Of a stretch of DNA of 42,842 bases, positions 841 to 42,842 are shown piece by piece. Both the position numbers and the translations under genes were made by a program. The first letter of the stretch is position 1; each line of letters opens with the position of its first letter. The notes under the pieces were generated by a model. It did no database searches. It was not told the origin of the DNA and saw only the letters and a list, made by a program, of their open reading frames with translations. Location: UHGV virus genome UHGV-0138423; one strand, written 5' to 3'. Origin of the DNA: a virus.

Positions 841-866
841 AAAAAGAGACCGAACACGATTCCTGT
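841..866 (-). ncRNA. sdsR: Probable 3'-terminal remnant (terminator arm plus U-run) of the host sRNA SdsR/RyeB; marks the host side of the prophage junction
   Basis: Minus-strand reading ...CAGGAAUCGUGUUCGGUCUCUUUUU closely matches the 3' end of E. coli SdsR as I remember it (...ACAGGAAUCGUAUUCGGUCUCUUUUU). Sequence further 5' (plus 867 onward) shows no resemblance to SdsR. prpA is the known chromosomal neighbour of sdsR/ryeA. Confidence 0.4.
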
Positions 867-1523
867 TTTCGTCAACAAACAACAAAATCTTTTAGAATTA
901 ATGTGTTAAATAAATTTATGCTCATCTTTTAATCCCTAACACATACCATTACATATTAATACATTCAATTAGTTACCATTTTTTTCGAGTTTTTTAGAGA
1001 AATTTTCGGGAATATTTCAGATCAATCCATGCATACACAAGCAATTCCTGTATTGAATAATTCCGTAGCAATTATGTAAAATCACCTCCGGCTGATTTTC
1101 ATTCAAACTCGCGCTATCGAACGTCCATCAGCCAGCCGTGGCACGTTCTTGCATACGACGTGCTACGGTTTCATTTATCTCCGACTGGAAACTTCTTATA
1201 CAAAGTCGATACGCCAACATCATAGATGATCGCCTACTGGTGGAACTTATATATAAAGCAATAATGACCAAACTTTACAGGCGGAGAAGAGCCGCTTCTT
1301 TAAACTTTCCTCAATAACAGCATTACTTGTATAATGCATCAGTTCACAATAGAAAAATGCATACTGCTATGTTGCCCGGATCATCACGGGCATTTTTTAT
1401 CCACCCTACCACGACATATTCATACGCTGCCACACAGAACATTTCAATCCACCAGTATGTTTCCGGTGTTTCACTCTCAGCAACAAACAACAGGAGAACG
1501 CATAATCGCAGCATAAAATGCAT

Positions 1524-1554
1524 GATGTAAGGAGCTTATATCGCTCCTTACATT
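1524..1554 (-). terminator. Hairpin immediately downstream of the tail fiber gene (possible bidirectional terminator)
   Basis: Inverted repeat GTAAGGAGC-(7 nt)-GCTCCTTAC, extendable to 11-12 bp, flanked by A/T-rich sequence on both sides. Confidence 0.5.
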
Positions 1555-1562
1555 AATATTAT

Positions 1563-3986
1563 TCACTGGCCAGACAGCGATGCCAGCATGAAATAATGCA
1601 GCTCATCATTCCTTACAGACATTATTTCACCAGCCTCCCTGACCAGCTTGCGCTCTCCGGTATCGTATTCTTCCATTGTAAGGAGTCCGTCAGGACCAAG
1701 CTCCATACGAGTCCCGTAAACCACTTCATATTCTGCCGGATATTCATCACGACACAAAATACCGTAATCAAAAGCGTCCAGCCCTTCCTCAGAGAAGACC
1801 TTCTGTACGTCCTGAGCAATCACTCCTACATGCCATCTGGCTGCGTTCCCTTTGCTGGACACTGCATCCCTGAAACGGAACCGACAGATATACCCGAGCA
1901 GCTTTCTGGCAACCCTTTTTTCTGCATCCGACAGAATTGTTTCGTCCTGTTTATGAGTCCGGTCTGATGTACTGATACTTCCCGTAGCTGAATAAACCTG
2001 TGCGGGTCGCCATGAGGCATAACCGATCGAATACGTATTATCTGTATAAGGGCGGAGATTTCCTGATGAATCTATGCGCCATCTCTTTTCTCCTCCTGTG
2101 GCATTTGCATCCTGATTCGTTGCAAAATCAATCACTGTCGCTGACCTGAACACAGATGAACCACCGCCAATTACCAGCGTGTTATTCCCCTCTGATGCCT
2201 GTTGGTCAACTACCAGTATTTTATCCTGATTTTTACCTGAACCACTTTTCGAGGCAGCGATAATACGATTAAACTGATCCTCACCATCGCTCTTTTGTGC
2301 GATGGTGATAACATTGGACCAGATTGCCTCTCTTTGTCGCTGAAAACCATATTCTCCGCTGTCTGTAGTGACAGCTTTATATTTTATTCCACCTTCAGCT
2401 GACTCCTGCGTTATATAGAATGTCTGGTTATTAGCATTCTTGATGAACACATAATTGTCAGCAGGAATGTCATTTCCACTCAGATCTTTAATCGGTGTCG
2501 TGGTTGTATGCAGACAAAACCATTTCTGACTCACAGAACGCATATATGCCAGAATTTCAGACAGGGATGTGAATACCGTCCCCAACACCGGGTTTACCAA
2601 CCCCTGGGCACTACGGGGAAATGTTCCAATACTGGCATGAGACACATCAAACCCCGTGTACAACCAGGCTGCCTGACGAAAATCAATAGCATCTCTGCCA
2701 GTACTGAACTCTTTCATCAGAACAATTCCTTTCTGATAAGCCTGTGGTAACCCACGCTCCAGAAAGATATAAAGCGAATATATACTGCCGCCGTCGTCAG
2801 AAATACAAATTCCTTCGTTCTCAATGCGCGAAGGTGTAAAACCCTGCCTGGTAAGCACATCTATCATTTTTTGGGGATGAAGAATGGATTCCTGCTGCTT
2901 TACTCCATCCGGAGAAAAGACCTTAACCCCCTGAAACTGGTTAAATCCGGCTGATGCCCCGGTATTAAAATAGCCACCATAAGAACAGGCAATATAATCG
3001 TCTCCCACAGCAATTCCCTGACGTTTTGTGAAGCGTCTTGCATAGCTGTCTGTGCTTTCCGTGATATATCCGGAATCATGCAACGGTAATGTGAATGTCC
3101 CTGTCCGACGAAACTGAAAATCATACACCGCAAATACTGTGCGGGTGATCAGGCCTCCCACTTCCGGCGCTGACTGTTCAACCACCCAGCGGTTTTTACG
3201 ATAGCTGAACTGGTTGTAAACACCGACATCATGTTCATCAATTAACGGCAATACTGAACCAGAAATTGCCCCATCAAGCGAAAACTGTTTCAGTAATCCA
3301 TTTTCTCCTGACATGAACAAACGTAATCCACCGTAATCCGTTGTCACCACAAGGCCTTCGCTGACAACGCCACGACCTCCATTATCGACATAATAATATC
3401 CCTCATATTCGCCGGATGTTGTGTACTGAACTATAACGTTCCGTGTCTGCTTTGGCTCAACGGTATAACTCAGATAGATTTTTTCTCCTGTCACCACAAA
3501 TCCCTGTGGATACATATATTCCGCACCAGACTGAGCAGCCAGCACCGTATCGTAGTCCGGGAATAATAACGGCAATTCCATTAAGACACTACGGGAATGG
3601 TTAGTGTACAGATTGTTCAATGAACCAGCTTTTACATCCTGTAACCCCAGATTTTCAAGAGCGCGTTCTACCGTGCCATCCGATTTGATATCGCCAAACG
3701 GATTCTTGCGGCTCAGGTATTCAACAGCAAACCCCGATCCCAGCAATTCAACAAAACCGGGCAGATCACCATTATCAAGCACATCCCGTTGCGTTTTATC
3801 ACTTACAAACTGGGCCAGAGCTGCAGCAATAAAGCTGGCCTGCCGAATAACCTTATTGACTTGCGCACTGGATGCTTTACCTGCTGTAAATCCGGATAAA
3901 AGCGCAGGCAACGCTTCCCATTCCTCCTGCGACATAACATTGGCATTTTTACCCGTTGCGAATGCTTTAAAGTCATTTTTTGCCAT
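1563..3986 (-). CDS. Tail fiber / tailspike protein with C-terminal intramolecular chaperone (peptidase S74-like) domain
   Basis: 807 codons from the ATG at 3984-3986 (MAKNDFKAF...), overlapping the upstream stop as TGATG. C-terminal ~110 aa (..RVARKLLGYICRFRFRD...HVGVIAQDVQKVFSEEGLDAFDYGIL...) resembles the self-cleaving chaperone domain of endosialidase-type tail fibers. Last gene of the tail operon. Confidence 0.75.
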   Translation of the reverse strand: MAKNDFKAFATGKNANVMSQEEWEALPALLSGFTAGKASSAQVNKVIRQASFIAAALAQFVSDKTQRDVLDNGDLPGFVELLGSGFAVEYLSRKNPFGDIKSDGTVERALENLGLQDVKAGSLNNLYTNHSRSVLMELPLLFPDYDTVLAAQSGAEYMYPQGFVVTGEKIYLSYTVEPKQTRNVIVQYTTSGEYEGYYYVDNGGRGVVSEGLVVTTDYGGLRLFMSGENGLLKQFSLDGAISGSVLPLIDEHDVGVYNQFSYRKNRWVVEQSAPEVGGLITRTVFAVYDFQFRRTGTFTLPLHDSGYITESTDSYARRFTKRQGIAVGDDYIACSYGGYFNTGASAGFNQFQGVKVFSPDGVKQQESILHPQKMIDVLTRQGFTPSRIENEGICISDDGGSIYSLYIFLERGLPQAYQKGIVLMKEFSTGRDAIDFRQAAWLYTGFDVSHASIGTFPRSAQGLVNPVLGTVFTSLSEILAYMRSVSQKWFCLHTTTTPIKDLSGNDIPADNYVFIKNANNQTFYITQESAEGGIKYKAVTTDSGEYGFQRQREAIWSNVITIAQKSDGEDQFNRIIAASKSGSGKNQDKILVVDQQASEGNNTLVIGGGSSVFRSATVIDFATNQDANATGGEKRWRIDSSGNLRPYTDNTYSIGYASWRPAQVYSATGSISTSDRTHKQDETILSDAEKRVARKLLGYICRFRFRDAVSSKGNAARWHVGVIAQDVQKVFSEEGLDAFDYGILCRDEYPAEYEVVYGTRMELGPDGLLTMEEYDTGERKLVREAGEIMSVRNDELHYFMLASLSGQ

Positions 3987-4666
3987 CAGAGTAATACTCC
4001 CCATGCCCCTACATCAAAACCACTGATAAATTCGTTATCCATATCAAAACCAAAAAATTTTGAACCTTCCGATGGGGTTTCCACCGAAGGTGTTTCTATG
4101 CCACCCGCCCACACCCCGGCGGCTTTTACTGTGAGATATCCCTGTTTAATTACAGCAATTAACTCACGCGATACATCTGAAATATCAGTATCAGGAAAGA
4201 CCCAGACCGATATCGTCATGTCCTGGTTATCGACAATCTGCATTCGCAGCCCGGATCCTGCTGTCGCCGTGTCAAGAATTGCCGGAAGCGAATCATTCCG
4301 TCCGTCCCAGTTATTAATCGCAATCTTCGCTTTAAGGATGACACGATAAGTTTCATCGCTGAGGTACATGTATCCGGAATCAGGATCATATGGCCCCTGC
4401 CATACCCCCTGATCATATCCAAGCCCGTCGGTATCCCAGCTGAAATAGACACCTGAGATAGACTGGCTGACAACACGGCTACGTCCGATCCACAATCCCA
4501 GAATGTCAAGTTGCACACCAACCGCAGAGTCAATATCAAATGCAGTAATCAGCCCTCTGGTGGCAGCCGCAACATCAATAAGCGGCCGGGTCATCAGATC
4601 AACATGCGCAAGAAATTTAGGTTTGGTGGCGTGGTAGTTCGTGATTAGTTCGGTGTATTTGCTCAT
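3986..4666 (-). CDS. Baseplate/tail protein (gpI-like position, between baseplate J and tail fiber)
   Basis: 226-codon ORF, translationally coupled to the J-like gene; position equals P2 gpI / Mu gp48. Family assignment from synteny only. Confidence 0.5.
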   Translation of the reverse strand: MSKYTELITNYHATKPKFLAHVDLMTRPLIDVAAATRGLITAFDIDSAVGVQLDILGLWIGRSRVVSQSISGVYFSWDTDGLGYDQGVWQGPYDPDSGYMYLSDETYRVILKAKIAINNWDGRNDSLPAILDTATAGSGLRMQIVDNQDMTISVWVFPDTDISDVSRELIAVIKQGYLTVKAAGVWAGGIETPSVETPSEGSKFFGFDMDNEFISGFDVGAWGVLL

Positions 4667-5862
4667 GACTCCACCGTTATAACGATATTTTCCGGGGTAC
4701 AGGACGCAGATTCGTTATATCTGATATCAATGTTTGATGACGACAAAGCCCCCGGGGATTTCCCAATCGTCAGTTCCTGAATATCGTAATAGCGAGCATT
4801 CCCGCCACTCACCACGCCAAGATTCGCCGGTGAGTAAATGCGACTTAAAAGGACCGAATCACCAATCGTCAGACTATTGATATAGTCGGAAATAGCCTGC
4901 TGGATCTGCTGCCCTATCTGTGAGGTATAACCCGTAAAAACTTTTAATTTAATCCGGGCATAAACAGGCACATCACTGGAACGCGAGAATTTGATTACAT
5001 GGGGATTGCCGTATTTATCCGGAACCGTAACGGATGTTGTACCGTGAGTGGCTGTCCCCTGGCCTTTATTCCCTCTGATAGCCTGAGCAATATCCGTCAC
5101 ATCACCGCCATCCACAATTACAGCAACAGAGTGTGGCGGTAACCCGTTACCGTCCTCCGAACCAGTATCGTTTTCATAGAGTTTGTGGCGGGTTACACCG
5201 GTAACATTAGAAACAGCACCATCCAGTGCTTCAAATGGGGTTATTGATGGCAACGCAACACTTTGCGACTGGCGGATACGTAACTCCGCGTCAGTTTCTG
5301 CCGGAGTGCCCACGGTAGCCGCAGCAGGATTAGTTACCGAAACCCAGCCACGGGTTGGCGTATTTATTTCAGTGATAGTTCCAGCCAGCGCCGCCACTGC
5401 ACCACTGACGGAACATGTTGCAGTCACCATCACTGTACCATCCACGCCGACCACCACTGAAGCAGGCAAACGCCATATCACATTATTACTGTCTTTCACG
5501 CTGCCATTAATGATGGTTGTTCCGGCAGTTCCTGTAAGAAGCAAATCAACCGTAGAATTCGTCGCGCCTTTACGTGAAATACCATTTATTTTCACGTTAC
5601 TGGTCAGTGCAGCCCCATAGCCGGTTGCCGGTGAAAAACAGTTGTAGACAGTTATCGCCGTATTATTGGCATCATGAATCGCCAGCGCCATCAGAGCCAC
5701 CATCTGGCCGTCTTTGCTGTCCGGTTCGAGGTAGGCATCACTGCCATAAATCTGCTGAAAATAGCTAATCAGGGTGCTGAGTATCGTCTGATAATCAGGC
5801 GCACTGATCCCCTCCGCGGTTACCTTTGCAGATAAACCGAGAGAATCAAGGTTCAGAGCCAT
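4663..5862 (-). CDS. Baseplate J-like protein
   Basis: 399 aa; size, position after the W-like gene and overall character fit the baseplate J (gp47/gp6-like) family. Confidence 0.7.
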   Translation of the reverse strand: MALNLDSLGLSAKVTAEGISAPDYQTILSTLISYFQQIYGSDAYLEPDSKDGQMVALMALAIHDANNTAITVYNCFSPATGYGAALTSNVKINGISRKGATNSTVDLLLTGTAGTTIINGSVKDSNNVIWRLPASVVVGVDGTVMVTATCSVSGAVAALAGTITEINTPTRGWVSVTNPAAATVGTPAETDAELRIRQSQSVALPSITPFEALDGAVSNVTGVTRHKLYENDTGSEDGNGLPPHSVAVIVDGGDVTDIAQAIRGNKGQGTATHGTTSVTVPDKYGNPHVIKFSRSSDVPVYARIKLKVFTGYTSQIGQQIQQAISDYINSLTIGDSVLLSRIYSPANLGVVSGGNARYYDIQELTIGKSPGALSSSNIDIRYNESASCTPENIVITVES

Positions 5863-6215
5863 TACGCCTCCGATGTAACAGTCGTTATTCCATAAAGAGT
5901 GTCGATTTCAGCGGAAAACATGACACGTCGGGTCGTGGTATCCACCGTCGTATTGAAAGAGAGGATTGATTTAACGCCCCGCGTTTCGAGGATGCGCTTA
6001 CGGATCGCCAGGTTGTAGGTTTCCGGCTTCTGCTTACCGAGCACAGACTGGATCCACGGAGTCCCTTCGGTGGTGTCGAGAAACCATTGCCCATACCACA
6101 ATTCGAATCGCGTTTTTACCGCCTGCGCCACGGCCTCCGGTGAGTTAATCAGCCAGGTGTCATCACCGCTGCCAAAGGTGTAATCTCCATCGGCGTCTTC
6201 ACGTCTGTATCGCAT
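5862..6215 (-). CDS. Baseplate wedge protein W (gp25-like)
   Basis: 117 aa ORF between the V-like and J-like genes; N-terminal region typical of the GPW/gp25 family. Confidence 0.65.
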   Translation of the reverse strand: MRYRREDADGDYTFGSGDDTWLINSPEAVAQAVKTRFELWYGQWFLDTTEGTPWIQSVLGKQKPETYNLAIRKRILETRGVKSILSFNTTVDTTTRRVMFSAEIDTLYGITTVTSEA

Positions 6216-6967
6216 CAGTTTACTCCGTCGGTATTGCTTCCACCACGCTGAACACCACCATGAGTGTGCGTATCATCGATTGGCTTGCCGTTAGCCTTCA
6301 CGCTACCCAAAAACTCAACAGCACCAGTGATTTTTGAAGCCACACCAGAAACAACAGATCCCACCATGCCACCCATCCAGGTTAACAGGCCATGAATGGT
6401 TACTTTCTCAGAAAAATCAGCCAGAGGGGCAACCACATCAAGACCACCCGGAGCGACAATTTTAATTTTCCGGGTATCAGGATTAAGCTCAAAATAGGTG
6501 CTGCCGTCGTCACTACGCAACTGTGTGGCACTGGTATTAATACCGCTAATCTTCCTTGCCTGCGACTGGGGACCGACAATACAAAAAGCATCCGATAAAT
6601 CATGCATTCTGTCATCGACCGGCTCCTGTATCCCGCCACTCTGCCACCAGAAATCAATACAACGATCGGCAAAAATCACCAAACATTCATCACCGGCTTT
6701 AACTGGGAACGTTAGCGTGCATCCTCCGCCGCGCGGGAATACCACTGGCACATCCACCAGCAATGGGTAATTTTGGGTAATGCGGTTGCCGTCATTATCC
6801 TTTTCAACCGAACGGATAGCAGGCTGCACAACTGCCGTCACCGCATCTGGATCGAATGACTGAATAATGCCAGGCAAGGCGACACGGATCTGGTTCTTTG
6901 TTGTTTCCCGTTCAGATTTGAATGTTTCGGCAAGGTCGCCGCTGCGGGTCTGGTCAGATACTGCCAT
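6215..6967 (-). CDS. Baseplate central spike / assembly protein V-like
   Basis: 250 aa with an N-terminal OB-like region and a Gly/His-rich C-terminal tip (..DDTHTHGGVQRGGSNTDG..); position upstream of W and J as in Mu gp45 / P2 gpV. Confidence 0.65.
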   Translation of the reverse strand: MAVSDQTRSGDLAETFKSERETTKNQIRVALPGIIQSFDPDAVTAVVQPAIRSVEKDNDGNRITQNYPLLVDVPVVFPRGGGCTLTFPVKAGDECLVIFADRCIDFWWQSGGIQEPVDDRMHDLSDAFCIVGPQSQARKISGINTSATQLRSDDGSTYFELNPDTRKIKIVAPGGLDVVAPLADFSEKVTIHGLLTWMGGMVGSVVSGVASKITGAVEFLGSVKANGKPIDDTHTHGGVQRGGSNTDGVN

Positions 6968-6985
6968 TTAGTAGGCTCCAGAAAG

Positions 6986-7010
6986 CAAAAAACCCGCCGG
7001 GTGGCGGGTT
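6986..7010 (-). terminator. Rho-independent terminator after the secreted-protein genes
   Basis: Minus-strand RNA AACCCGCC-ACCC-GGCGGGUU followed by UUUUUUG; lies between the stop at 7034 and the V-like start at 6967. Confidence 0.6.
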
Positions 7011-7033
7011 AAATGGTGTCTGCGATAAGGTTC

Positions 7034-7399
7034 CTACATTTTCGTGCAGGTCTTATAGATGGCATCACCACGGGGGCGATCATCTGCGTCTAAAATCTGA
7101 ACTATTTGTTTAATAGTTTTTGAATCGTTAGGGAAAACAGTTGTGTAGTGGTTATGCATCCCACCATTCGCCCCCCATACATCAAATGTGATGACCACCG
7201 AATCCCCCAAGTCACCGTACGGATACTGGTCAGTGGCTGAATTTTCTGTTAGCTGATCGTTCATTATGACTGCCTGTTTACTCATTGAGGCATTCACATA
7301 CATTACAAATTTATCGTCACCGCACTTAAAGCGCAAAACAGGCGCTGCAAGCACGCTATACGACATAAAAACAAGAGATAAGAGAGCTAAGCGCTTCAT
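7034..7399 (-). CDS. Small secreted protein (moron), function unknown
   Basis: 121 aa; N-terminus MKRLALLSLVFMSYSVLA is a typical Sec signal peptide; mature part has Cys near both ends; AT-richer than the flanking tail genes; followed by its own terminator. Confidence 0.6.
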   Translation of the reverse strand: MKRLALLSLVFMSYSVLAAPVLRFKCGDDKFVMYVNASMSKQAVIMNDQLTENSATDQYPYGDLGDSVVITFDVWGANGGMHNHYTTVFPNDSKTIKQIVQILDADDRPRGDAIYKTCTKM

Positions 7400-7411
7400 T
7401 AATCCCCCCTG

Positions 7412-7756
7412 TTAATTAACTTTTTTGCATGGGAAAGACCCGATGATTCTAGGCGCGTCCATGCTGTTCTGCAGAAGCTGGACGTTCAGGAAACGCGTTT
7501 CGGTGCCCGGTCGATGGATATACTCGAACCCATAATTGTGGCCATCTTTGGCAGGCATCAGCCCCATTTTGATCTGCATGCCTGTACCGTCTTTACCCAA
7601 CATTTTTACTTTTTGGGACGTTACTGTTTCGCCATTGATTTTAAATAATGAGTCAGGGATCGCATCCATACGAAAGTTGCCGCATTGCATCGTTATGGTG
7701 TTTGCACTTACACCAACAGACACTAACGCCAGCAATGAAAATATCCATCGTTTCAT
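7412..7756 (-). CDS. Small secreted protein (moron), function unknown
   Basis: Start taken at the internal ATG (MKRWIFSLLALVSVGVSA signal peptide) preceded by GAGAGGA; the ORF-track start is an upstream GTG. Mature protein has N- and C-proximal Cys like its neighbour. Confidence 0.55.
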   Translation of the reverse strand: MKRWIFSLLALVSVGVSANTITMQCGNFRMDAIPDSLFKINGETVTSQKVKMLGKDGTGMQIKMGLMPAKDGHNYGFEYIHRPGTETRFLNVQLLQNSMDAPRIIGSFPCKKVN

Positions 7757-7758
7757 TT

Positions 7759-8829
7759 CTATAATCCTCTCTGCAAAGCAGTGCTGGATGGCATATCCTG
7801 CGCACCGCGCGCTTCGCACATCATATCCATGTACCAGGCCTGGCCCCTTGTGTCGCCAGTGTACATAATCCCGCGCACAATATAAACGCCATCAGTTGCG
7901 ATGCTGGCCGTCATTTGTTTGGACACGGGCAGGGTAACGTTAGAGTTGCCATCTATTGTTTCGTCAAAGTAACGTCCCGCTGCTTTAGCAATATCGTCAT
8001 TCGGTAAAGCTGTTTTATAGATAGAAGCCTGATCCAGTTGAATTAGCCCGTTAACCCGGATGTTCGGATTAATAAGCGCGCGGACGTTTACGCCGTTACC
8101 GATAGTCTGCTGCGGCATGCCAATAAGCCCGGTAGCGCTGTTGAGCACAATCGCTTCATGAACATATTCGTTATTCGCCACCATCTGGCGCTGACCGTCC
8201 ACGAATTGCCATGTTGCGCCACATTGCCCGGCTACGTTATCCATTAGATGCCGCGTCATGCCAAAGAGTACCCGCCCCCGGGGGAATACAGTAGCAGGCA
8301 TTTCAGGCGTCAGGCCTTCGGTCGCGCCTTTGGCTTCGAAGTCTTTCATCAGCGCACGGTTTACATCAGCGACCGTGTAACCGGCAGCCAGCGTCTGTGA
8401 GGTTATACTGGTGGCAAAAGCCAGATCAGTATCTGCTGCCTGAATCAGGACGTAGGAATCAACCGGACTGTCTTTTCCTGTGACCGAGTAGCGAATTTCA
8501 CCGCTGAAAATCAGTCCGTAGTTGCGGCCATCACTCTGACCCACGTCCGCCGCGTCAACTTCCCGCACGGTCCCGACGTCGCTTGCCGACACCTCCGGCG
8601 CGATACCGTCGTAACCGGCAATCAGACGCACTTTCGAAAACTCCTGCCCGGTGATTCGGTTCACAGTATCTGCCGAGAGGTTATAAATTTTGATAGTCCC
8701 TACCCGGGACGCGCTGCTGATGTTGAACCAGTCGATCGTAAAGGTGACTTTAAAATCACTTAGCTCAATTCCCTGACCGTTCCCGTCCACAAGCTGCAGC
8801 TCGAAATGTCTCATCCAGTTCTGTGACAT
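7759..8829 (-). CDS. Baseplate hub-like tail protein
   Basis: 356 aa ORF between the small tail proteins and the spike gene; assignment by position in a contractile-tail baseplate cluster. Confidence 0.45.
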   Translation of the reverse strand: MSQNWMRHFELQLVDGNGQGIELSDFKVTFTIDWFNISSASRVGTIKIYNLSADTVNRITGQEFSKVRLIAGYDGIAPEVSASDVGTVREVDAADVGQSDGRNYGLIFSGEIRYSVTGKDSPVDSYVLIQAADTDLAFATSITSQTLAAGYTVADVNRALMKDFEAKGATEGLTPEMPATVFPRGRVLFGMTRHLMDNVAGQCGATWQFVDGQRQMVANNEYVHEAIVLNSATGLIGMPQQTIGNGVNVRALINPNIRVNGLIQLDQASIYKTALPNDDIAKAAGRYFDETIDGNSNVTLPVSKQMTASIATDGVYIVRGIMYTGDTRGQAWYMDMMCEARGAQDMPSSTALQRGL

Positions 8830-8831
8830 GC

Positions 8832-34186: not shown

Positions 34187-34197
34187 ACAAGGATGCA

Positions 34198-34647: not shown

Positions 34648-34671
34648 AGCCCGCTATCAGCGGGCTTTTTT
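34648..34671 (+). terminator. Intrinsic terminator after the repressor gene
   Basis: AGCCCGC-TATCA-GCGGGCT followed by TTTTTTG. Confidence 0.6.
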
Positions 34672-34700
34672 GTACCATCATGATATGACACCCACCACAA

Positions 34701-34742
34701 AACACATTTCGTGTTGACATAAGAAAACGCATTGTGTTTAAT
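34701..34742 (+). promoter_or_regulatory. pL-like early-left promoter with operator-like repeats
   Basis: -35 TTGACA (34714-34719), 17 nt spacer, -10 TTTAAT (34737-34742); overlapped by AACAC-ATTTC-GTGTT (34701-34715), same architecture as the operator at 34126-34140. Confidence 0.5.
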
Positions 34743-34922
34743 AAGCATATCCAAACAACGCCCCACCAGAGAACGGCAGGACAATACCTCGAGTTATCCA
34801 GCCACTGAACAGGGCTAAGTAGCCAGCCTGAGGCATACGAACATGACGGCAGTTGTTGATTGATACAAAGCGCAGTAGATAAAACGTTCCGCCACCCGGC
34901 GTTAAGGGGAAATGAGGTCAAC

Positions 34923-35075
34923 ATGGATACTATCGATCTTGGCAACAACGAATCTCTGGTATGTGGCGTGTTTCCCAATCAGGACGGCACGTTTACCGCG
35001 ATGACGTATACCAGAAGCAAAACGTTTCAAACTGAAGCTGGCGCGCGTCGCTGGTTAACCAGAAACACTGACTGA
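34923..35075 (+). CDS. ydaF: YdaF-like small protein (DUF1391)
   Basis: 50 aa from ATG with GAGG RBS: MDTIDLGNNESLVCGVFPNQDGTFTAMTYTRSKTFQTEAGARRWLTRNTD; matches Rac YdaF as I recall it; first gene after the pL-like promoter. Confidence 0.6.
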   Translation: MDTIDLGNNESLVCGVFPNQDGTFTAMTYTRSKTFQTEAGARRWLTRNTD

Positions 35076-35086
35076 TGAGGTTGACG

Positions 35087-35461
35087 ATGGAATTTAAAGA
35101 TTTACCAGTACCATTCCAGGAAATGGCATCGAATGTGGTTCGCTCTCAACTGGCGACTCTTGACCTGAGTACCGTAGAAAAAGAAACCATCGATACTATA
35201 TCCGGTAACGTGCGTCGTGCCTTTATCGGTCTGTACGAAGAGAAGCAGCTCTCTGATAACCAGGATTTACATGAAAAATACTTCCTGGAATTAATGGACA
35301 TCCTTAATAAAGGATTTGGCTTGTTAATGAAAAAGAAAGGGATTCGAATAGCTCCCCTTGAAAATCATTTTACAGCAAGCAGTATTAATTCCTGTGATTT
35401 AAAGCATCACACATCCGATGGGAAAGTTGAATCAAACAACAAAATATCAATTAATCATTAA
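35087..35461 (+). CDS. Hypothetical protein occupying the sieB position
   Basis: 124 aa from ATG with GAGG RBS (MEFKDLPVPFQEM...); soluble-looking, no family recognised. Confidence 0.5.
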   Translation: MEFKDLPVPFQEMASNVVRSQLATLDLSTVEKETIDTISGNVRRAFIGLYEEKQLSDNQDLHEKYFLELMDILNKGFGLLMKKKGIRIAPLENHFTASSINSCDLKHHTSDGKVESNNKISINH

Positions 35462-35763
35462 TTTATTCACAGGTGAGGTAGAGTGCGTGCGCCGGACACG
35501 GATAAGAATCCGGCACTGACAGTTTACTGAAAAGGATATATCCCTGAAAAGTCAGGGCATAACGCGAAAGCGCACGGCGAAGTTCGTCTCTCTGTAGGTA
35601 GTCGTTAAATTTAATTCGACCGTGCGCTTCCGGTTGTGGCAATCCGCGAAATGGCGCGGCGGTAAGTATGGCGGGGTTATTCCTTCCCCGCTGAGGACAC
35701 CGGGTTGTCAGGTTGACCATACGCTTAAGTGACAACCCCGCTGCAACGCCCTCTGTTATCACT

Positions 35764-35802
35764 TTTCTGGTGATTCGGCGGAAACGGATATCCGCCCTTT
35801 TT
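35764..35802 (+). ncRNA. dicF: Candidate DicF-family sRNA (ends at an intrinsic terminator)
   Basis: Begins UUUCUGGUGA and ends GGCGGA-AACGGAUA-UCCGCC CUUUUU; same 5' seed and 3' terminator context as E. coli DicF as I recall it, with a shorter middle. Sits upstream of the kilR-like gene inside a stop-rich, hairpin-dense segment. Confidence 0.5.
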
Positions 35803-35985
35803 AAAGTGAATTTTGTGATGCGGTGAATGCGGCTATGCGCACGCGGAACAGTTAAAGCAGTAAGGCGGTATTTTACGGGCGTAACGAGCATCAACTAATC
35901 CGGCGTTAATTGTTAACTGGTTAACGTCACCTGGAGGCACCAGGCACCGCATCGACAAAATTCATTTGTAAAAATGGAGATAATT

Positions 35986-36207
35986 ATGATTGCTCATCAC
36001 TTCGGAACTGATGAAATACCACGTCAGTGTGTGACCCCTGGTGATTATGTTCTTCATGAAGGTCGGACATATATCGCCTCGGCAAACAATATTAAAAAGC
36101 GGAAACTTTATATTCGTAGCCTGACTACAAAAACATGCATTTCTGACTGCATGATTAAAGTCTTCCTCGGTCGTGATGGTTTACCTGTAAAGGCGGAGTC
36201 ATGGTAA
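35986..36207 (+). CDS. kilR: KilR-like cell-division inhibitor
   Basis: 73 aa from ATG after GGAGA ([31 protein letters not shown]...); size and position (between sieB-position and ydaE) as Rac kilR. Confidence 0.55.
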
Positions 36208-36377
36208 TGACTAAGAAAATAAAATGTGATTATCACCTTTGCAATAAAGAAATTGAAGAAAGCAAAATCATTACAAGACCACTTCATTTCATGCGTGGAG
36301 TTATACCAACGACGGAAATGAAAAAATATTGTAGTGAAATCTGTGCCGAAAAAGACCAGATGGCACACGAACTTTAA
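36207..36377 (+). CDS. ydaE: YdaE-like small metal-binding protein
   Basis: 56 aa ([18 protein letters not shown]...KYCSEICAEKDQMAHEL) with two Cys pairs; start overlaps the kilR-like stop (TAATG); below the ORF-track size cut-off. Confidence 0.55.
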   Translation: MTKKIKCDYHLCNKEIEESKIITRPLHFMRGVIPTTEMKKYCSEICAEKDQMAHEL

Positions 36378-36451
36378 TTAACTGACTATTCGAAACTGAA
36401 TTTATGCCAGCAATGGTAGGGATTCTTTCAACCTTAAAAAAGGAAACAGAA

Positions 36452-36748
36452 ATGAGCATTATTGAATGTGAAATTGAACTTAATGTCATTAACGATTCTC
36501 TCGCCGAATTCAAATGTGGGAATACATTACATGGTTTTATTCAGGTTTCCCAAAAAGAAAACGTTACGGTAATTATTGATGGCGGTTACGTTCTGGGAAC
36601 ATTTGATTGTTATGTGTGTGCCATTAAAGAAGTCGCATTACTCGCAGCTCGTATTGAAGAGGCTGACAAGAAATACGGCATCAGTTATCAACGGCAGAAA
36701 GAACTCTCAGGCATCGCATCATCAGTTCATTTCTTTTATGCAATCTGA
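36452..36748 (+). CDS. Hypothetical protein (RacC position)
   Basis: 98 aa from ATG after AGGAAACAGAA; immediately upstream of the RecE-like gene. Confidence 0.4.
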   Translation: MSIIECEIELNVINDSLAEFKCGNTLHGFIQVSQKENVTVIIDGGYVLGTFDCYVCAIKEVALLAARIEEADKKYGISYQRQKELSGIASSVHFFYAI

Positions 36749-36772
36749 ATATGAGTTGAGGTTAAAAAAACA

Positions 36773-39700
36773 ATGAGCACCGATAAACAAGTTTACCCAC
36801 TGTATTACGAAGCAAAAAATGACAAAGTAAGAAAACGTCTCGGTATTAAAGGCGGTTTCTACTGGGCTGAAGCGAAAAAATTATCCATTGCCATCTCCCG
36901 TGGTGCTGTTGCGATTGACGATGCTGGCTACGATGAAGATGACTTTAAAAAACCTGTTCGCGTCAATTTGCCCGTTGTTGATGACCTTCCACCAGAAGGC
37001 GTATTTGATACGGAATTTTGCAACCGTTACGAAAAAGGCGGGGAAGATGGCATCACAATGGTATTTATCGCGCCCTCATCCTCTGCGCAGGACAAAACAG
37101 CCAGCACTGACAATACCAATGTTAATGGCGAAGACATGACTGAGATTGAGGAGAATATGCTACTCCCGATTTCTGGCCAAGAGCTGCCCATCCGCTGGCT
37201 TGCTCAACACGGCAGCGAAAAACCGGTAACGCACGTTTCACGCGACGAACTCCAGGTATTACATATTGCACGGGCTGAAGAACTACCAGCTGTTACTGCC
37301 CTGGCTGTTTCCCACAAAACCAGCCTGCTCGACCCGCTGGAGATTCGCGATCTTCACAGACTGGTTCGTGATACTGACAAAGTTTTCCCTAATCCTGGCA
37401 ATTCAAGTCTGGGGCTGATGACTGCTTTTTTCGAAGCATACCTGGACGCAGACTACACCGATCGCGGTCTGCTGACAAAAGAGTGGATGAAAGGAAATCG
37501 TGTTTCACGCATCACGCGCACGGCTTCCGGCGCTAATGCTGGCGGCGGGAACCTCACCGATCGCGGCGAAGATTTCGTTCACGATCTGACGTCACTGGCG
37601 CGCGACGTAGCCACTGGCGTACTGGCTCGTTCAATGGACGTGGACATTTATAACCTTCATCCGGCACACGCTAAACGTGTCGAGGAAATTATCGCTGAAA
37701 ATAAACCGCCCTTTTCTGTTTTCCGCGACAAATTCATCGCCATGCCTGGTGGGCTGGATTATTCCCGTGCCATCGTGGTTGCGGCCGTGAAAGAAGCACC
37801 AATTGGTATCGAGGTCATCACTGCGCATGTCACTGAATATCTGAACAAGGTACTTATTGAAACCGATCATGCCAACCCTGATCCAGAAATCGTGGATATT
37901 GCCTGCGGTCGCTCCTCTGCCCCGATGCCGCAGCGTGTAACAGAAGAAGAAAAACAGGATGACGAAGAAAAACCGCAACCATCTGGCGCAATGGCATATG
38001 AACAGGCAACGGCTGAAACAGTGGAACCGGATGCAACTGAACATCATCAGGACACGCAGCCGCTGGATGCTCAGTCACAGGTAAATTCTGTTGATGCGAA
38101 ATATCTGAAACTGCGGGCAGAACTCCATGAAGCCCGGAAAAACATTCCGCCAAAAAATCCTGTCGATGCAGACAAATTACTGGCTGCCTCTCGCGGAGAA
38201 TTTGTTGAAGGGATTAGCGACCCGAATGATCCGAAATGGGTTAATGGGATCCAGACCCGCGATTCTGTGTACCAGAATCAGCCAGAAACGAAACAGCCTG
38301 AGCCAGTAGTGCAACAACAGGAAACGGAGAAAGTTTGCACCGCCTGCGGTCAGGCTGGCGGCGGCAACTGTCCTGACTGTGGCGCGGTGATGGGCGACGC
38401 AACGTATCAGAAAACCTTTAATGAAGAAAATCAGAATGAATATCAGGAAAAAGGTCTGGAGGAAATGGAAGGTGCTGAACATCCGCACAAGGAGAACGCT
38501 GGCAACCATTCGCATCATGATTGCAGTGATGAAACTGGTGAAGCGTCAGTTCCTGTAGCAACTGAAATCATGTGGCCGTCATATTTCGAGCCTGGACGTT
38601 ATGAAAACCTCCCGAACGAGGTTTATCACTCCGCCAACGGAATAAGCAGCACGATGCTGAAGGATGCCCGTATCAGCCTGATGTATTACCACGGGCGGCA
38701 CATTGCCGGAACTATTCCGGGCGAGGAAAGTGATGCATTGCTGCGTGGGCGGATTATTCACAGCTATGTTCTGGAAACGGATAAATTCGCTGATGAGTAT
38801 GCCATTCCGGTACCGGTTCCTGAATATGTGGTTACTACTTCTAACGAACTGATCGCCATCATTAAAAAACACAATGCCAGTCTGCCAGCACCGATGACAC
38901 CAGAGCAGATGAAAGAGTGGATCGAAAGCTACAACAGCACTCTTATACAGCCACTGTCGGTAAGTGCCGGGGCCGAAGAAACAGGCATCCTTTACGGTTC
39001 GCTTCCGGAGGAATTCCGGCGTATTCCTGAGAGGGAAAAACACACAGCATCAGCAATGAAAGCCTGTATTAAAGAATACAACGCAAACCTCCCTCCTCTG
39101 TTGAAAACCAGTGGATCACGGGAGCAACTTCTGGAGCAAATTGAAACTGTAAATCCAGAACTGGCAAAAAAAGAACGTGCTAAATCTTTGCCTTACAACA
39201 TCAGTGGCACAAAAGAGCAATTAACCGAAATCGCACGGAAAATTCGCCCGGAACTGGTGACTCTGGAAGACTGGCAAAAACGCCAGCAAGAAGAAAACGC
39301 CGGGAAAACGTTTATCAGTCCGGATATGTATGAACAGGCAAAAAATATTCACGCTGCACTGCAAAACAATACCGATGCAGCAAGGCTACTCAACCACCCG
39401 GATCGCAAATCTGAAATCAGCTATTTCGGGTTTGATGAAGAAACCGGGCTGGAAATCAGGGTCCGTCCTGATATCGAAATCCGGCTGCCATACGAAAGCA
39501 TTTGCGCCGACGTGAAGTCAGTCAGCCTCGGTTATGTGCGACAGGAACGACTGAAAGATCGGCTGCACCGTGAAATTATTGAGCGTGATTATCACCTCAG
39601 CGCAGCAATGTACTGCGATGTGGCAAACCTGGACAAATTTTTCTGGATCTTCGTCAACAAAGATGCTGGCTATCACTGGGTGGCCGTCGTGGAAGCCTCG

Positions 39701-39859
39701 CAGGAACTCCTGGAACTTGGTCGACAGGAATATCGCCGGACGCTACGACAGATAAATGAAGCTCTGGAGACAAACAACTGGCCAGCACCGATTACCGAAA
39801 GTTATACCGACGAATTAAACGACTTTGATCTTCGTCGTCTTGAAGCACTGAGCATCTGA
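36773..39859 (+). CDS. recE: Exodeoxyribonuclease VIII (RecE-like) with divergent C-terminal nuclease domain
   Basis: 1028 aa; long central stretch (..[45 protein letters not shown]...[25 protein letters not shown]..) near-identical to Rac RecE as I recall it; the C-terminal nuclease region differs and is longer. Confidence 0.8.
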
Positions 39860-39870
39860 GGAAGGACACA

Positions 39871-40923
39871 ATGAACGAATTAACTCAACAAGAAAATATT
39901 AACTCTAATGTTGCGGTTTTCAGCCCTCAGTCCCTGGCTGCAATTCAGACATTTTCCCAGGTAATGGCTTCCGGCATGGCTACTGTACCGGAACACCTCC
40001 GGGGAAATCCATCAGACTGCATGGCCATCACCATGCAGGCGATGCAGTGGCAAATGAACCCTTACGCAGTAGCTCAGAAAACTTTCGTTGTGAATGGTGT
40101 GCTCGGATATGAAGCGCAACTTGTTAATGCCGTAATCAGTACTCGTGGGCCGCTAACCGGGCGTATTGAATATGACTGGTTCGGGCCGTGGGAAAAAATT
40201 ATCGGGAAATTTGAAATCAGGAAGAACGACAAGGGGAAAGAATATCGTGTACCTGGCTGGAAGCTGGCCGATGAAAACGGGATCGGTGTTCGCGTCCAGG
40301 CAACACTACGCGGAGAGAGCAAGCCACGCGTACTGGAGTTACTTCTGGCGCAGGCCAGAACACGTAACTCAACGTTATGGGCCGATGATCCTCGCCAGCA
40401 GCTTGCCTATCTGGCTCTGAAACGCTGGGCGCGCCTTTATTGCCCTGAAGTGATTCTTGGAGTGTACACCCGGGACGAACTGGACGAACCACAGGAAAAA
40501 ATCATTAATCCGGTTCAGGAACATAAAAACACATCCGCCTGCCGTGCGGAACGTGAAACAACAATTATTGAGCAAGATGCCGGGGAAAACTGGATCAGTG
40601 CTTTCCGTGAACGTATTGAGCAGGCACAAAGCACCGGAGAAACAACAGCACTTCGCCAGGAAGTGGAAGATCATAAAAATACACTTGGCGCTCTCTACAC
40701 AGAACTTAAAGGAAAAGTGGTTCAGCGTCATCACCGTCTCAATGCTATTGCCCGTATTGAGAAGATGATAAATGACCTGCCTTCATCAGGTGATCCAGAA
40801 GCAGAACAAAAATTTATTGCTCTGGAAAATACGCTGAATGCTGCACGACCACATCTGGGAGAATTATATGAGGCGTATAAAACGACACTGACAGATATGA
40901 AACCAGAATATATCGGCTCCTGA
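39871..40923 (+). CDS. Single-strand annealing protein (RecT/Redbeta superfamily), partner of the RecE-like exonuclease
   Basis: 350 aa directly downstream of recE-like gene; central region (..MNPYAVAQKTFVVNGVLGYEAQL...WADDPRQQLAYLALKRWARLY..) follows the pattern of Bet/RecT-type proteins; does not match my recollection of Rac RecT. Confidence 0.55.
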   Translation: MNELTQQENINSNVAVFSPQSLAAIQTFSQVMASGMATVPEHLRGNPSDCMAITMQAMQWQMNPYAVAQKTFVVNGVLGYEAQLVNAVISTRGPLTGRIEYDWFGPWEKIIGKFEIRKNDKGKEYRVPGWKLADENGIGVRVQATLRGESKPRVLELLLAQARTRNSTLWADDPRQQLAYLALKRWARLYCPEVILGVYTRDELDEPQEKIINPVQEHKNTSACRAERETTIIEQDAGENWISAFRERIEQAQSTGETTALRQEVEDHKNTLGALYTELKGKVVQRHHRLNAIARIEKMINDLPSSGDPEAEQKFIALENTLNAARPHLGELYEAYKTTLTDMKPEYIGS

Positions 40924-40930
40924 TATTTAC

Positions 40931-40956
40931 TATGGCGGTGTAGCCTCACCGCCATA
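40931..40956 (+). terminator. Hairpin after the annealing-protein gene (possible terminator)
   Basis: TATGGCGGTG-TAGCCT-CACCGCCATA, 10 bp stem, followed by moderately T-rich sequence. Confidence 0.4.
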
Positions 40957-40986
40957 ACAAAACTTTATTTTATGAGAGAAAAGACA

Positions 40987-41181
40987 ATGCGGTATGAAAA
41001 AGTCAAACCATGTCCGTTTTGTGGTTGTCCATCAGTAACGGTGAAAGCCATTTCAGGATATTACCGCGCAAAGTGTAACGGATGCGAATCCCGAACTGGC
41101 TATAGTGGAAGTGAAAAAGAAGCACTCGAAAGATGGAATAAACGAACTACTGGAAATAATAATGGAGGTGTTCATGTATAA
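40987..41181 (+). CDS. ralR: Restriction alleviation protein (Lar/RalR family)
   Basis: 64 aa: MRYEKVKPCPFCGCPSVTVKAISGYYRAKCNGCESRTGYSGSEKEALERWNKRTTGNNNGGVHV; Cys4 zinc-ribbon; matches Rac RalR as I recall it. Confidence 0.8.
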   Translation: MRYEKVKPCPFCGCPSVTVKAISGYYRAKCNGCESRTGYSGSEKEALERWNKRTTGNNNGGVHV

Positions 41182-41362
41182 AATTACTGCCACTATTGAA
41201 AAGGAAGGTGGCACTCCTACTAACTGGACAAGGTACTCAAAAACAAAATTAACCAAATCAGAATGCGAAAAAATGCTCTCAGGTAAAAAAGAAGCAGGCG
41301 TTTCCAGAGAGCAGAAAGTAAAGCTGATAAATTTTAATTGCGAGAAGCTTCTGTCCTCGTGA
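41174..41362 (+). CDS. ydaC: YdaC-like small protein (DUF1187)
   Basis: 62 aa from ATG after GGAGG (MYKITATIEKEGGTPTNWTRYSK...); position between ralR and xis as in Rac. Confidence 0.5.
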   Translation: MYKITATIEKEGGTPTNWTRYSKTKLTKSECEKMLSGKKEAGVSREQKVKLINFNCEKLLSS

Positions 41363-41462
41363 GTTGCATTATATACAAATTAGAACTTCATAGCTGATTA
41401 TTAAAAATCAACCACACCCGCCAGTATTCTGTATATTTACTGGCGGTCATATCGTAAGAGGT

Positions 41463-41750
41463 ATGGCAATGAATCTTGTGACACTAAAAACGTGGGGAAA
41501 ACTCAGATATCCAGATAACCCACCATCAATATCAACGCTGAGACGATGGGCAAGGAATGGAAACATTTATCCTGCACCTGAACTACACGGGAGGAGTTAC
41601 AGGGTGGTTCCGGAGGCTTTCTATATCAACCCAAATAAGGTTGATACCGATATAACACACCATCAACCTAATGGGCGACAAGGGAGAGACAGTCCGTTAC
41701 TGGAGAAGTTAAAACATGCAGCGGAAAAAATACGATCCCAATTTGCCTAA
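41463..41750 (+). CDS. xis: Excisionase-like DNA-binding protein
   Basis: 95 aa ORF immediately upstream of and overlapping the integrase gene. Confidence 0.5.
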   Translation: MAMNLVTLKTWGKLRYPDNPPSISTLRRWARNGNIYPAPELHGRSYRVVPEAFYINPNKVDTDITHHQPNGRQGRDSPLLEKLKHAAEKIRSQFA

Positions 41751-42792
41751 AAACTTAACATATCGAAGGAGGGACAAAGCATATTACTGGCGCAACCCTC
41801 TGACGAAAGAAGAATTTACACTAGGTAAAATTTCAAGGAGAGATGCAGTAGCGCAGGCAATTGAAGCAAATCATTATATATACAAAAACTACTCTCCTGC
41901 TGCCTTAATTGAAAAGCTTAAAGGGTTCGACTCATTTACTATGGCAGACTGGATTGAACGTTACAAAACGATTCTTATAAGGAGAAAAGTGTCCAGAAAT
42001 ACTTATAAAATTCGGGTAAATCAACTGGAGACAATAAAAGAAAAATTGGGAGAGATTTTACTGACAGAAATAACCACTCGCCATATTGCCGAGTTTCTTG
42101 ATTTGTGGATTGAAGGAGGGAAAAACACAATGGCAGGATCAATGCGTTCTGTGTTGTCTGATATGTTTCGCGAGGCCATTGTTGAAGGACGTATATCTCA
42201 AAATCCAGTAACGCCAACAAGAGCACCGAAAATAGTAGTTACAAGAGAACGACTGAAACTAAAGACATACAACTGCATCAGGGAGGCAGCAGATCAACTT
42301 CCGGCATGGTTCCCATTAGCTATGGATTTAGCCCTTGTAACAGGACAACGTCGCGAAGACATAACGAATATGCGGTTCAGTGATATTTATGATGATCGTC
42401 TCCACATCAGGCAAATTAAGACAGGAATGATGATTGCTATCCCCCTGTCACTCAGCCTTCCTGTCGCTGGTCTACGGCTTGGTACAGTAGTTGAACGGTG
42501 CCGCCTGGTAAGCCGGGGAGATTATCTAATCAGTGCCGGAATTAGAAAAAACAGCCCTGACGGCAGCATTCACCCGGATGGCCTGACAAAAAAATTTGTC
42601 GCAGCCAGAAAATTAACAGGTATCCAGTTCAGTGAAAACCCACCAACTTTTCACGAGATCAGAAGTCTGGCTGGACGATTGTACAAAGAAACATGTGGAG
42701 AAGAATTTGCTCAGCGTCTACTTGGCCACACATCGGAGAAGACAACAAAAATGTATCTTGATGAGAGAGAAAAAACGTACTTACTGCTCTGA
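41716..42792 (+). CDS. int: Tyrosine integrase (lambda Int family)
   Basis: 358 aa; N-terminal arm-binding-like region (..NLTYRRRDKAYYWRNPLTKEEFTLG..) and C-terminal catalytic motifs (..LVTGQRREDI.., ..HEIRSLAGRLY.., ..LLGHTSEKTTKMYLDER..) with the conserved R, H-x-x-R and Y. Confidence 0.9.
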   Translation: MQRKKYDPNLPKNLTYRRRDKAYYWRNPLTKEEFTLGKISRRDAVAQAIEANHYIYKNYSPAALIEKLKGFDSFTMADWIERYKTILIRRKVSRNTYKIRVNQLETIKEKLGEILLTEITTRHIAEFLDLWIEGGKNTMAGSMRSVLSDMFREAIVEGRISQNPVTPTRAPKIVVTRERLKLKTYNCIREAADQLPAWFPLAMDLALVTGQRREDITNMRFSDIYDDRLHIRQIKTGMMIAIPLSLSLPVAGLRLGTVVERCRLVSRGDYLISAGIRKNSPDGSIHPDGLTKKFVAARKLTGIQFSENPPTFHEIRSLAGRLYKETCGEEFAQRLLGHTSEKTTKMYLDEREKTYLLL

Positions 42793-42842
42793 TTTTAACG
42801 TAAATGGATTGTTAAATGTATTTTGGTTGTGATATAACCAAA

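Follow-up and report, generated by a model that had tools for sequence, protein, structure and literature searches.

Temperate phages that join a lambdoid genome to a contractile tail have been described before. SEN34, a Salmonella phage of the genus Brunovirus, was induced with mitomycin C, forms plaques and has a contractile tail by electron microscopy, pairing a lambda-like genome and regulatory region with myovirus morphology (PMC5261728). The urinary coliphage 923 was likewise induced and isolated, was identified as a myovirus by transmission electron microscopy, and has vB_EcoM-683R1 as its nearest GenBank match (PMC12945033). Here we analyzed the virus genome UHGV-0138423, a stretch of 42,842 nucleotides (nt) referred to below as the window, and the prophage it contains. 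Judged from gene content, gene order and integration site, it is highly probable that this element is one complete-looking temperate lambdoid prophage, with a partly Rac-type early half and a SEN34-type contractile-tail virion half, and that it is one variant of a recombining family. In this respect the element is ordinary: mosaics of this type are already described (SEN34 has a lambdoid genome and a myovirus particle) and are fairly common.

A prophage that matches the window with only 23 differences is present in the bovine strain Escherichia coli C25 (NZ_CP127314.1, ~2618797-2661646, minus strand), where the Prokaryotic Genome Annotation Pipeline (PGAP) places it between pphA and yebY. With respect to the empty pphA-yebY interval of E. 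coli K-12, the difference is a 42-kb insert with an overlap of ~32 bp at its ends; the K-12 intergenic DNA aligns to window positions 1-871 and to positions 4022-4717 of the C25 locus (L001). The prophage spans the window from ~867 to its end plus ~100 bp more, giving a size of ~42.1 kb, and the attachment (att) copy on the integrase side is found at L001 4691-4701, ~100 bp outside the window, the end of which corresponds to L001 4798. A repeat search with a 14-nt seed missed the att repeat, the core of which is imperfect, and alignment to the empty K-12 site revealed it. The identity block occupies window positions 845-871, its 11-bp crossover block ACGATTCCTGT lies at 856-866, and the block common to both ends reads AGACCGAA(C/T)ACGATTCCTGT(A/T)TTCG. 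An earlier interpretation made from the letters of the window without database searches, referred to here as the sequence-only reading, had set the left boundary at 866, which is essentially exact, and the right end at 42842, which is too early by ~100 bp. The left end of the window can be summarized as follows:

803-871 (+): host/phage junction attR, where the 5' end of ryeA (~54-64 nt) occurs together with a copy of the sdsR terminator (its last ~31 nt)
872-1562 (no strand): right arm of the phage, with no recognisable gene and a hairpin plus T-run at ~1526-1552, after the stop codon of the tailspike gene

The small open reading frames (ORFs) in this right arm (872-1562) gave no Pfam or PHROG match. 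Positions 840-1163 correspond to an attP arm, with 86% identity by blastn to positions 45978-46301 of the phage record vB_Apl-pPE4 (PP818812.1; pPE4), where they adjoin the int gene, and the attP of pPE4 is the exact recombinant of both prophage junctions. PGAP annotated a single integrase/excisionase pair and no transposase in the element, and the att pair, also single, brackets the 42 kb. No tRNA was found in the window, and a tRNA integration site is thereby rejected. All 61 coding sequences (CDS) called by PGAP translate without stops in the window. The view that a single mosaic and intact-looking prophage combines lambdoid early genes with a virion module for a contractile tail was thus upheld by one int/att pair and 61 intact CDS, and the structural module was not found to have an integrase of its own.

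The virion half (1563-22948) carries the likeness to SEN34, in which the order of early and late genes is lambdoid and the virion module is colinear from the portal to the DUF2612 gene, as in the element. Of the 26 genes that extend from portal to tail-fibre anchor, 25 match SEN34 colinearly with 61-96% amino acid (aa) identity, the exception being the gene for a 121-aa protein in a variable slot. Most of these matches are full length, with shorter ones for the tape measure (75%), STY1053 (70%) and the fibre (11%, its N-terminal anchor only). No virion gene is truncated relative to viable SEN34, and inactivated virion genes, which would have told against the sequence-only reading, were therefore not found. 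At the DNA level, 15,485 bp of SEN34 and the element align at 74-85% nt identity, and the computed intergenomic similarity is ~29%, below the genus threshold of 70% nucleotide similarity over the genome (PMC12945033). The two differ in recombination genes, which are of the lambda Exo/Bet type in SEN34 and RecE/RecT in the element, and also in terminase (36% aa), integrase, att site, immunity, replication genes and tail fibre. The virion genes, all on the minus strand, were assigned with Pfam and PHROGs and, for the baseplate cluster (3986-9721), NCBIfam:

3986-4666 (-): DUF2612 protein, baseplate cluster
4663-5862 (-): Baseplate_J, baseplate cluster
5862-6215 (-): wedge, baseplate cluster
6215-6967 (-): spike, weakly P2-V-like, baseplate cluster
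7034-7399 (-): 121-aa gene in the variable slot, with no Pfam, PHROG, NCBIfam or PADLOC match
7412-7756 (-): phrog_3443 protein, adjoining the slot gene
7759-8829 (-): hub, baseplate cluster
8832-9134 (-): Pam3-gp18-type plug, baseplate cluster
9134-9721 (-): Dit-like protein, baseplate cluster
9721-11706 (-): tape measure, tail region (9721-13936)
11696-11860 and 11884-12336 (-): chaperone pair, tail region
12340-12780 (-): tube (DUF3277/KPP10_Orf10; Pfam KPP10_Orf10 at 9e-61), tail region
12791-13936 (-): sheath (Pfam DUF3383 at 1e-100), tail region
13940-15999 (-): neck terminator and head-tail connector genes
16041-16982 (-): major capsid protein (PF09950)
16994-17500 (-): cement protein
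17504-18724 (-): DUF2213 protein
18739-19473 (-): head morphogenesis protein with Mu F domain
19364-20830 (-): portal, PF06381 (Phage_portal_3, formerly DUF1073; E=6.7e-106, sole Pfam match)

Identity to SEN34 amounts to 61-92% aa for the baseplate genes, which keep their order, 63-91% for the tail genes and 69-96% for the neck and head genes (13940-20830), the latter being 93-100% identical to those of vB_EcoM-611R5 (611R5). The virion module is predicted to encode an icosahedral head and a contractile tail, the baseplate of which resembles those of phages Pam3 and E217. The tail is assigned as contractile by homology: the DUF3383 protein has matches among sheath proteins of known structure (7kh1 at 7e-41 and Pam3 8hdr at 1.5e-23), and tube, hub, spike and Baseplate_J proteins are present. 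The proposed Mu F-like protein, sheath, tube and baseplate V/W/J genes were thus recovered, the spike being only weakly P2-V-like, whereas the portal, previously taken for the DUF935 type, belongs to PF06381/DUF1073 and had no DUF935 match in Pfam.

A relationship of the virion to Mu-like or SfV-like phages had also been suggested. The Shigella phage SfV has an early region that is lambda-like, and it is annotated with a contractile, Mu-type tail module and a non-Mu head module. A tblastn comparison of the virion module with Mu 9000-36717 and SfV 1-20000 gave no portal, capsid, sheath, tube or hub match; apart from 26% identity of baseplate J to Mu, the sole match was to SfV, over a 79-aa fragment of the fibre. 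The affinity to Mu and SfV was rejected on these grounds, the module being SEN34-like. The slot between hub and spike is variable, holding a Phd/Doc toxin-antitoxin pair in the O55:H7 strain DEC5A (L009 38031-38851) and other small genes in SEN34 and 611R5. SEN34-type modules occur in ~6% of complete E. coli genomes, yet their genes are mostly labelled "hypothetical" or "DUF".

Two parts of the virion half depart from these relatives, namely, the terminase and the receptor-binding protein:

1563-3986 (-): receptor-binding protein of 807 aa, one continuous ORF without stops (Pfam, blast and PDB matches)
20830-22233 (-): terminase large subunit (TerL), PBSX/Terminase_3 type (PF04466 at 4.5e-38), in the terminase module (20830-22948)
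22199-22948 (-): terminase small subunit (TerS; phrog_370 at 7e-95)

TerL is only 36% identical (aa), over ~55% of its length, to the TerL of SEN34, 611R5 and DEC5A (540 aa), and the nearest DNA matches of its gene are in Klebsiella prophages (~79% nt). The terminase pair is swapped relative to these three closest virion relatives. A PBSX-type TerL is named in all 20 of the top matches listed, 19 of which also have the DUF1073 portal. As for the receptor-binding protein, its N-terminal ~115 aa are the baseplate anchor of the family (96% to 611R5 and 683R1, over aa 1-115 only), aa 124-802 are of the podovirus (Kayfunavirus) type, with 46% identity to Kayfunavirus tailspikes over 84% of the protein, and the C-terminal part has a Peptidase_S74 intramolecular chaperone (PF13884, aa 680-742) that matches, in the PDB, the chaperone domains of the T5 L-shaped tail fibre and of an endo-N-acetylneuraminidase. 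This protein is a chimera of a SEN34-family anchor and a Kayfunavirus-type tailspike. PGAP had mis-called the gene as a truncated pseudogene and a separate CDS. No separate tail-fibre assembly gene follows the tailspike gene, plausibly because the tailspike carries its own chaperone domain.

The gene order of the whole element is lambdoid (int-xis-recombination-repressor-cro-cII-replication-nin-Q-lysis-virion), although matches to lambda itself are confined to the endolysin (88%), Int (38%) and Ea22 (39% aa), with none for the other proteins. Besides the lysis and late-control genes listed further below, the early half (23006-42792) contains the following features:

26429-26719 (-): DUF1364/HNH-like gene of the nin-like/accessory region (26429-30638; PGAP/PHROGs)
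26719-27318 (-): NinB-like DUF1367 gene, nin-like region
27878-28090 (-): hok/mok toxin, nin-like region
28028-28203 (-): sok RNA (Rfam, above gathering score)
within 26429-30638 (-): small genes, ead/Ea22 and DUF4406 (PGAP/PHROGs)
30635-31027 (-): Ren-like DUF977 gene, rightward early operon (30635-34101)
31043-31804 (-): YdaW, 93% aa over 60% of the protein to K-12 Rac
31827-32573 (-): DnaC-like YdaV, 95% aa to K-12 Rac ydaV
32580-33362 (-): O-like initiator, with the C-terminal half of ydaU 81% aa to K-12 Rac
33440-33862 (-): YdaT/CII-like, 95% aa to K-12 Rac ydaT
33859-34101 (-): cro-like helix-turn-helix (HTH) gene (PHROGs)
34198-34617 (+): HTH_3 repressor of 139 aa without peptidase domain (Pfam), immunity region (34102-34740)
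within 34920-41362 (+): ydaF-like gene of the leftward early operon, 84% aa to K-12 Rac
between the ydaF-like gene and kilR (+): 124-aa gene, leftward early operon (34920-41362)
35986-36207 (+): kilR, 95% aa to K-12 Rac
after kilR (+): ydaE, 71% aa to K-12 Rac
between ydaE and recE (+): 98-aa gene, leftward early operon
36773-39859 (+): recE, 67% aa over 72% of the protein to K-12 Rac
39871-40923 (+): RecT (PF03837), matching only Rac-SA53 (63%) and pPE4/DEC5A (99%)
40987-41181 (+): ralR, 95% aa to K-12 Rac
41174-41362 (+): rcbA-like DUF1187 gene, 97% aa to K-12 Rac
41180-41358 (-): antisense RalA RNA (Rfam, 212 bits)
41469-41750 (+): excisionase (PF07825)
41716-42792 (+): lambda-family tyrosine integrase (PF00589, Arm-DNA-bind_1), 38% aa to lambda Int

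Of the early proteins, ten are 67-97% identical (aa) to those of K-12 Rac by tblastn, and the RalA RNA is present as well. The leftward operon shares kilR, ydaE, recE, ralR/RalA and rcbA with Rac, RecT being of a different lineage, and the rightward operon shares the ydaT-ydaU-ydaV-ydaW replication segment. However, tblastn against K-12 Rac (E<=1e-4) gave no match for integrase, excisionase, RecT, repressor and cro, and the DNA-level alignment with K-12 Rac covers only 4.86 kb of the window. The description of the early half as Rac-like therefore holds for rcbA, ralR/RalA, recE, kilR, ydaE, ydaF and ydaT-U-V-W and not for integrase, excisionase, att site, repressor/cro and RecT. Lambdoid replication, Q and lysis genes, also proposed from the letters alone, were confirmed with the O-like and DnaC-like genes, DUF1133, a lambda-S holin, an endolysin 88% identical to lambda R, and Rz/Rz1. 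Palindromes of the type AACAC-N-GTGTT flank the repressor gene (34126-34141 on one side and 34700-34739 on the other) and are candidate operators.

Lysis and late-control genes lie between the terminase and the nin-like region:

23006-23191 (-): small gene, lysis cassette (23006-24526)
23172-23516 (-): Rz1 (phrog_214/phrog_456 spanins)
23335-23727 (-): Rz (phrog_214/phrog_456 spanins)
23711-24187 (-): endolysin, 88% aa to lambda R
24191-24526 (-): holin, lambda S family (PF05106)
25023-25604 (-): anti-repressor gene (PHROG/Pfam; PF06576/PF06530 are among the matches of the unit)
25658-25742 (-): C4 antisense RNA (Rfam, 67 bits, above gathering)
25768-25858 (-): isrK and c4-a1b1 RNA elements (Rfam, 69 and 47.8 bits, respectively, above gathering)
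25789-25773 (-): candidate terminator inside isrK (terminator scan; consensus match only)
25881-25852 (-): candidate sigma-70-like promoter at the stop codon of the Q-like gene (promoter scan; consensus match only)
25878-26432 (-): Q-like antiterminator (DUF1133; PHROG 753 at 1e-81; PF06530 at 27.5 bits, just above the 26-bit cutoff)

The succession from the Q-like gene through isrK, c4-a1b1 and C4 to the anti-repressor forms a unit like P1 immI or the Gifsy-1 isrK-anrP locus at the place where lambda has pR'-tR'. The Gifsy-1 locus antQ-isrK-anrP comprises a Q-like gene, isrK and an antirepressor (PMC4825925). This is the gene order of window positions 25023-26432, in a different phage and host, the two being likened by description only.

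From these features a life cycle can be proposed. The HTH repressor would keep the divergent early promoters shut, and upon induction the early operons would provide excision, recombination and replication functions. The Q-like protein may then allow RNA polymerase starting from the promoter at the Q stop codon to pass the isrK terminator and transcribe the C4/antirepressor unit and, subsequently, the lysis and virion genes. The PBSX-type terminase would package the DNA, and the particle would adsorb via the enzymatic-looking tailspike.

Comparison with other records places the element in a family of exchanging modules. The prophage at yebY-pphA of O55:H7 DEC5A has the same att site, an integrase, repressor and cro that are each 100% identical to those of the element, the same Rac-type early genes, and 97-100% aa identity in most virion genes. 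Its terminase, however, is of the SEN34 type, the segment from tape measure to hub has diverged (48-74% aa), the hub-spike slot is occupied by the Phd/Doc pair, the fibres are invertible, with pinE, and both ydaT and ydaW are frameshifted. The records vB_EcoM-611R5, 606R2, 683R1 and 689R2 have a virion module ~97% identical (nt) to that of the element, which means that the nearest match of the isolated coliphage 923 carries this module; in 611R5 (ON470588.1), however, the early region is unrelated and contains a DNA polymerase and a helicase. In pPE4, the int, xis, RecT, nin region and Q-like gene of the element are joined to a virion module of the type found in Rac-SA53, a complete prophage already on record at the ttcA site of Rac with intR. 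Both Rac-SA53 and pPE4 share Rac-type early genes and the nin/Q region with the element (hok 96-100%, DUF1367 93-97%, DUF1364 90-100% and Q-like 72-93% aa), and pPE4 additionally shares integrase (98%), excisionase, RecT (99%) and attP. Their virion module, in contrast, is different and has no tblastn match to that of the element except baseplate J at 27-28%. The literature searched on Rac-like myoviruses, Rac-SA53 and pPE4 yielded nothing useful.

Among 5,426 complete E. coli genomes, the sheath gene was found in 327 and the integrase in 228. In all 20 records listed, recE, RecT, integrase and DUF1073 portal are contiguous, so that at least 20 complete genomes besides DEC5A have this arrangement, at the same site, and sources of the family include cattle, humans, dogs, chickens, pigs, mice, a pangolin, a rabbit farm and a river. 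Taken together, these alignments show a family that has evidently swapped terminase, hub-spike slot, tail fibres and even the whole virion module: one integrase and early region occurs with two unrelated virion modules, and one virion module with at least three early regions and two terminases. The element illustrates cleanly how temperate phages of enterobacteria exchange modules, and it matters little beyond bookkeeping.

Two observations concern the records themselves. The "complete phage genome" of 611R5 ends in host genes, namely, those for a yfhH-like regulator, phosphatidylglycerophosphatase C and tRNA adenosine deaminase, and a study of phages found in the genomes of clinical isolates mentions its sibling record vB_EcoS-666R9. 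The vB_Eco* GenBank records appear to be prophage regions taken from assemblies and not isolated virions. The use of vB_EcoM and vB_EcoS records as evidence of viability was consequently rejected, in view of the host genes of 611R5 and the clinical-isolate genome study that mentions 666R9. Furthermore, although pPE4 is deposited as an "Actinobacillus phage", most of its shared early proteins (int, xis, RecT, kilR, cro, hok, nin region and Q-like) are 92-100% identical to E. coli prophage genes; given these E. coli-like proteins and an attP that matches E. coli sdsR, its stated host looks doubtful.

The sequence-only reading had suggested that the element may show what an intact Rac-like phage looks like. 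One alternative takes it for an intact member of the Rac lineage with the virion that K-12 Rac lost. The ten early proteins and the RalA RNA speak for such a descent, which we nevertheless regard as very improbable. The residual late proteins of K-12 Rac are 38-95% identical to those of lambda (stfR 81%, tfaR 94% and rzoR 95% aa), ynaA resembles lambda H and lomR resembles lom, and none of ynaA, lomR, stfR, tfaR and rzoR has a match in the window. Because the late genes of Rac are of this lambda type, remnants of a siphovirus tail, and are unmatched in an element with a contractile-tail module, the element does not show an intact Rac, and the claim fails for the virion half. Rac is moreover integrated at ttcA with IntR/XisR and has RacR/YdaS immunity, whereas the element uses the sdsR site with a different integrase, excisionase, repressor and cro; RecT differs too, only 4.86 kb can be aligned, and Rac-SA53, which does occupy ttcA with intR, has a virion module with no detectable similarity to that of the element beyond a 27% baseplate-J match. 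A second alternative divides the window into two neighbouring elements, of which one would be a defective Rac-like prophage and the other a myovirus or tailocin-like element that integrates by a system of its own. The halves do have different closest relatives among phages, and guanine-plus-cytosine content differs among segments. This alternative is rejected, and is in our view almost certainly wrong, because there is only one int/att pair: one integrase, one excisionase and one pair of att sites bracket the whole 42 kb. The lysis-terminase-head-tail order continues the proposed Q-dependent late operon on one strand, and at least 20 genomes share this contiguous organization. The virion half also contains genes for terminase, portal and capsid, and a tailocin was ruled out on that basis.

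The remaining alternative is a cryptic prophage that has been retained for the genes it carries (RalR/RalA, hok/sok, KilR and recET) and is no longer inducible or able to form infectious particles. It is possible, although we lean against it. No SOS link is recognisable, since the repressor lacks a peptidase domain and no LexA box was found in a regulatory region; family members decay, as seen in the frameshifted ydaT and ydaW of DEC5A; and terminase and tailspike are recent swaps that may be incompatible. On the other hand, all 61 genes are undisrupted, conserved attP arms occur in the free-phage record pPE4, and the family occurs in unrelated strains from many hosts and habitats, which implies recent horizontal transfer. 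Furthermore, SEN34 is inducible and plaque-forming, and coliphage 923, with 683R1 as its nearest match, was induced, isolated and imaged as a myovirus. Several points nevertheless weigh against a functional temperate phage. Intact ORFs do not prove that the element is inducible, and the vB_Eco* records add no functional evidence. The repressor has no S24 peptidase domain (Pfam), and a scan for the LexA box CTGT-N8-ACAG gave no match in the regulatory regions and one, at chance level, in the tailspike gene. No N-like gene is found among the annotations or PHROG labels, no search for nut sites having been made, and no cos or pac site was identified in the element. The terminase differs from that of the nearest virion kin, and we infer its fit with the portal from their recurrent pairing only; promoter and terminator assignments are consensus matches only. 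SOS control via LexA boxes was rejected as a candidate, its sole match being intragenic and at chance level.

The temperate prophage proposed here has its att core in a small RNA (sRNA) locus that is a known hot spot of phage insertion (PMC7380047; PMC3333887). In K-12, the core falls within the final ~31 nt of sdsR (ryeB), an sRNA gene situated inside the antisense ryeA (NC_000913.3 1923066-1923337). At the int-side junction sdsR stays full length, the 3' half of its terminator being provided by the phage (L001 4686-4717), whereas at the pphA-side junction ryeA is reduced to its promoter and first ~54-64 nt; the insertion thus splits ryeA. The Salmonella phage PhiW104 inserts in the last 23 bp of ryeB (sdsR), inside ryeA, and alters RyeA/RyeB levels (PMC7380047). 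Its att site is likewise in the 3' end of sdsR, in a different phage and host, and the two are likened by description only. An att site in a regulatory sRNA pair makes consequences at the level of the host possible. We tentatively suggest, with considerable doubt, that the phage family with this integrase often modifies, in nature, the SdsR/RyeA toxin-antitoxin pair of sRNAs and that the present member is an active temperate myovirus that adsorbs via a podovirus-type enzymatic tailspike and not via fibres. The ryeA promoter and first ~54-64 nt lie 42 kb from the rest of ryeA in every lysogen, and stationary-phase and stress physiology could shift, as reported for PhiW104 in Salmonella.

Among the minor features are two toxin-antitoxin systems of type I, in which hok/mok is paired with sok RNA and ralR with RalA RNA; all RNA matches exceed the Rfam gathering scores. 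An unannotated ORF of 143 aa with a TTG start (35463-35894, minus strand) lies between kilR and the 124-aa gene, at the position of sieB in K-12 Rac; it had no Pfam, PHROG or PADLOC match and may not be a real gene. Similarly, a 110-aa ORF (34646-34978) had no Pfam or PHROG match, and PADLOC and NCBIfam searches of ten ORFs without an assigned role gave no match to a defence system. As for the 23 differences from C25, 12 are substitutions packed into 240 bp (window 29238-29476; DUF7167 and 58-aa genes), and a 6-bp indel at window position 32952 lies inside the gene of the O-like initiator. The clustered differences look like a small recombination patch and not like random drift.

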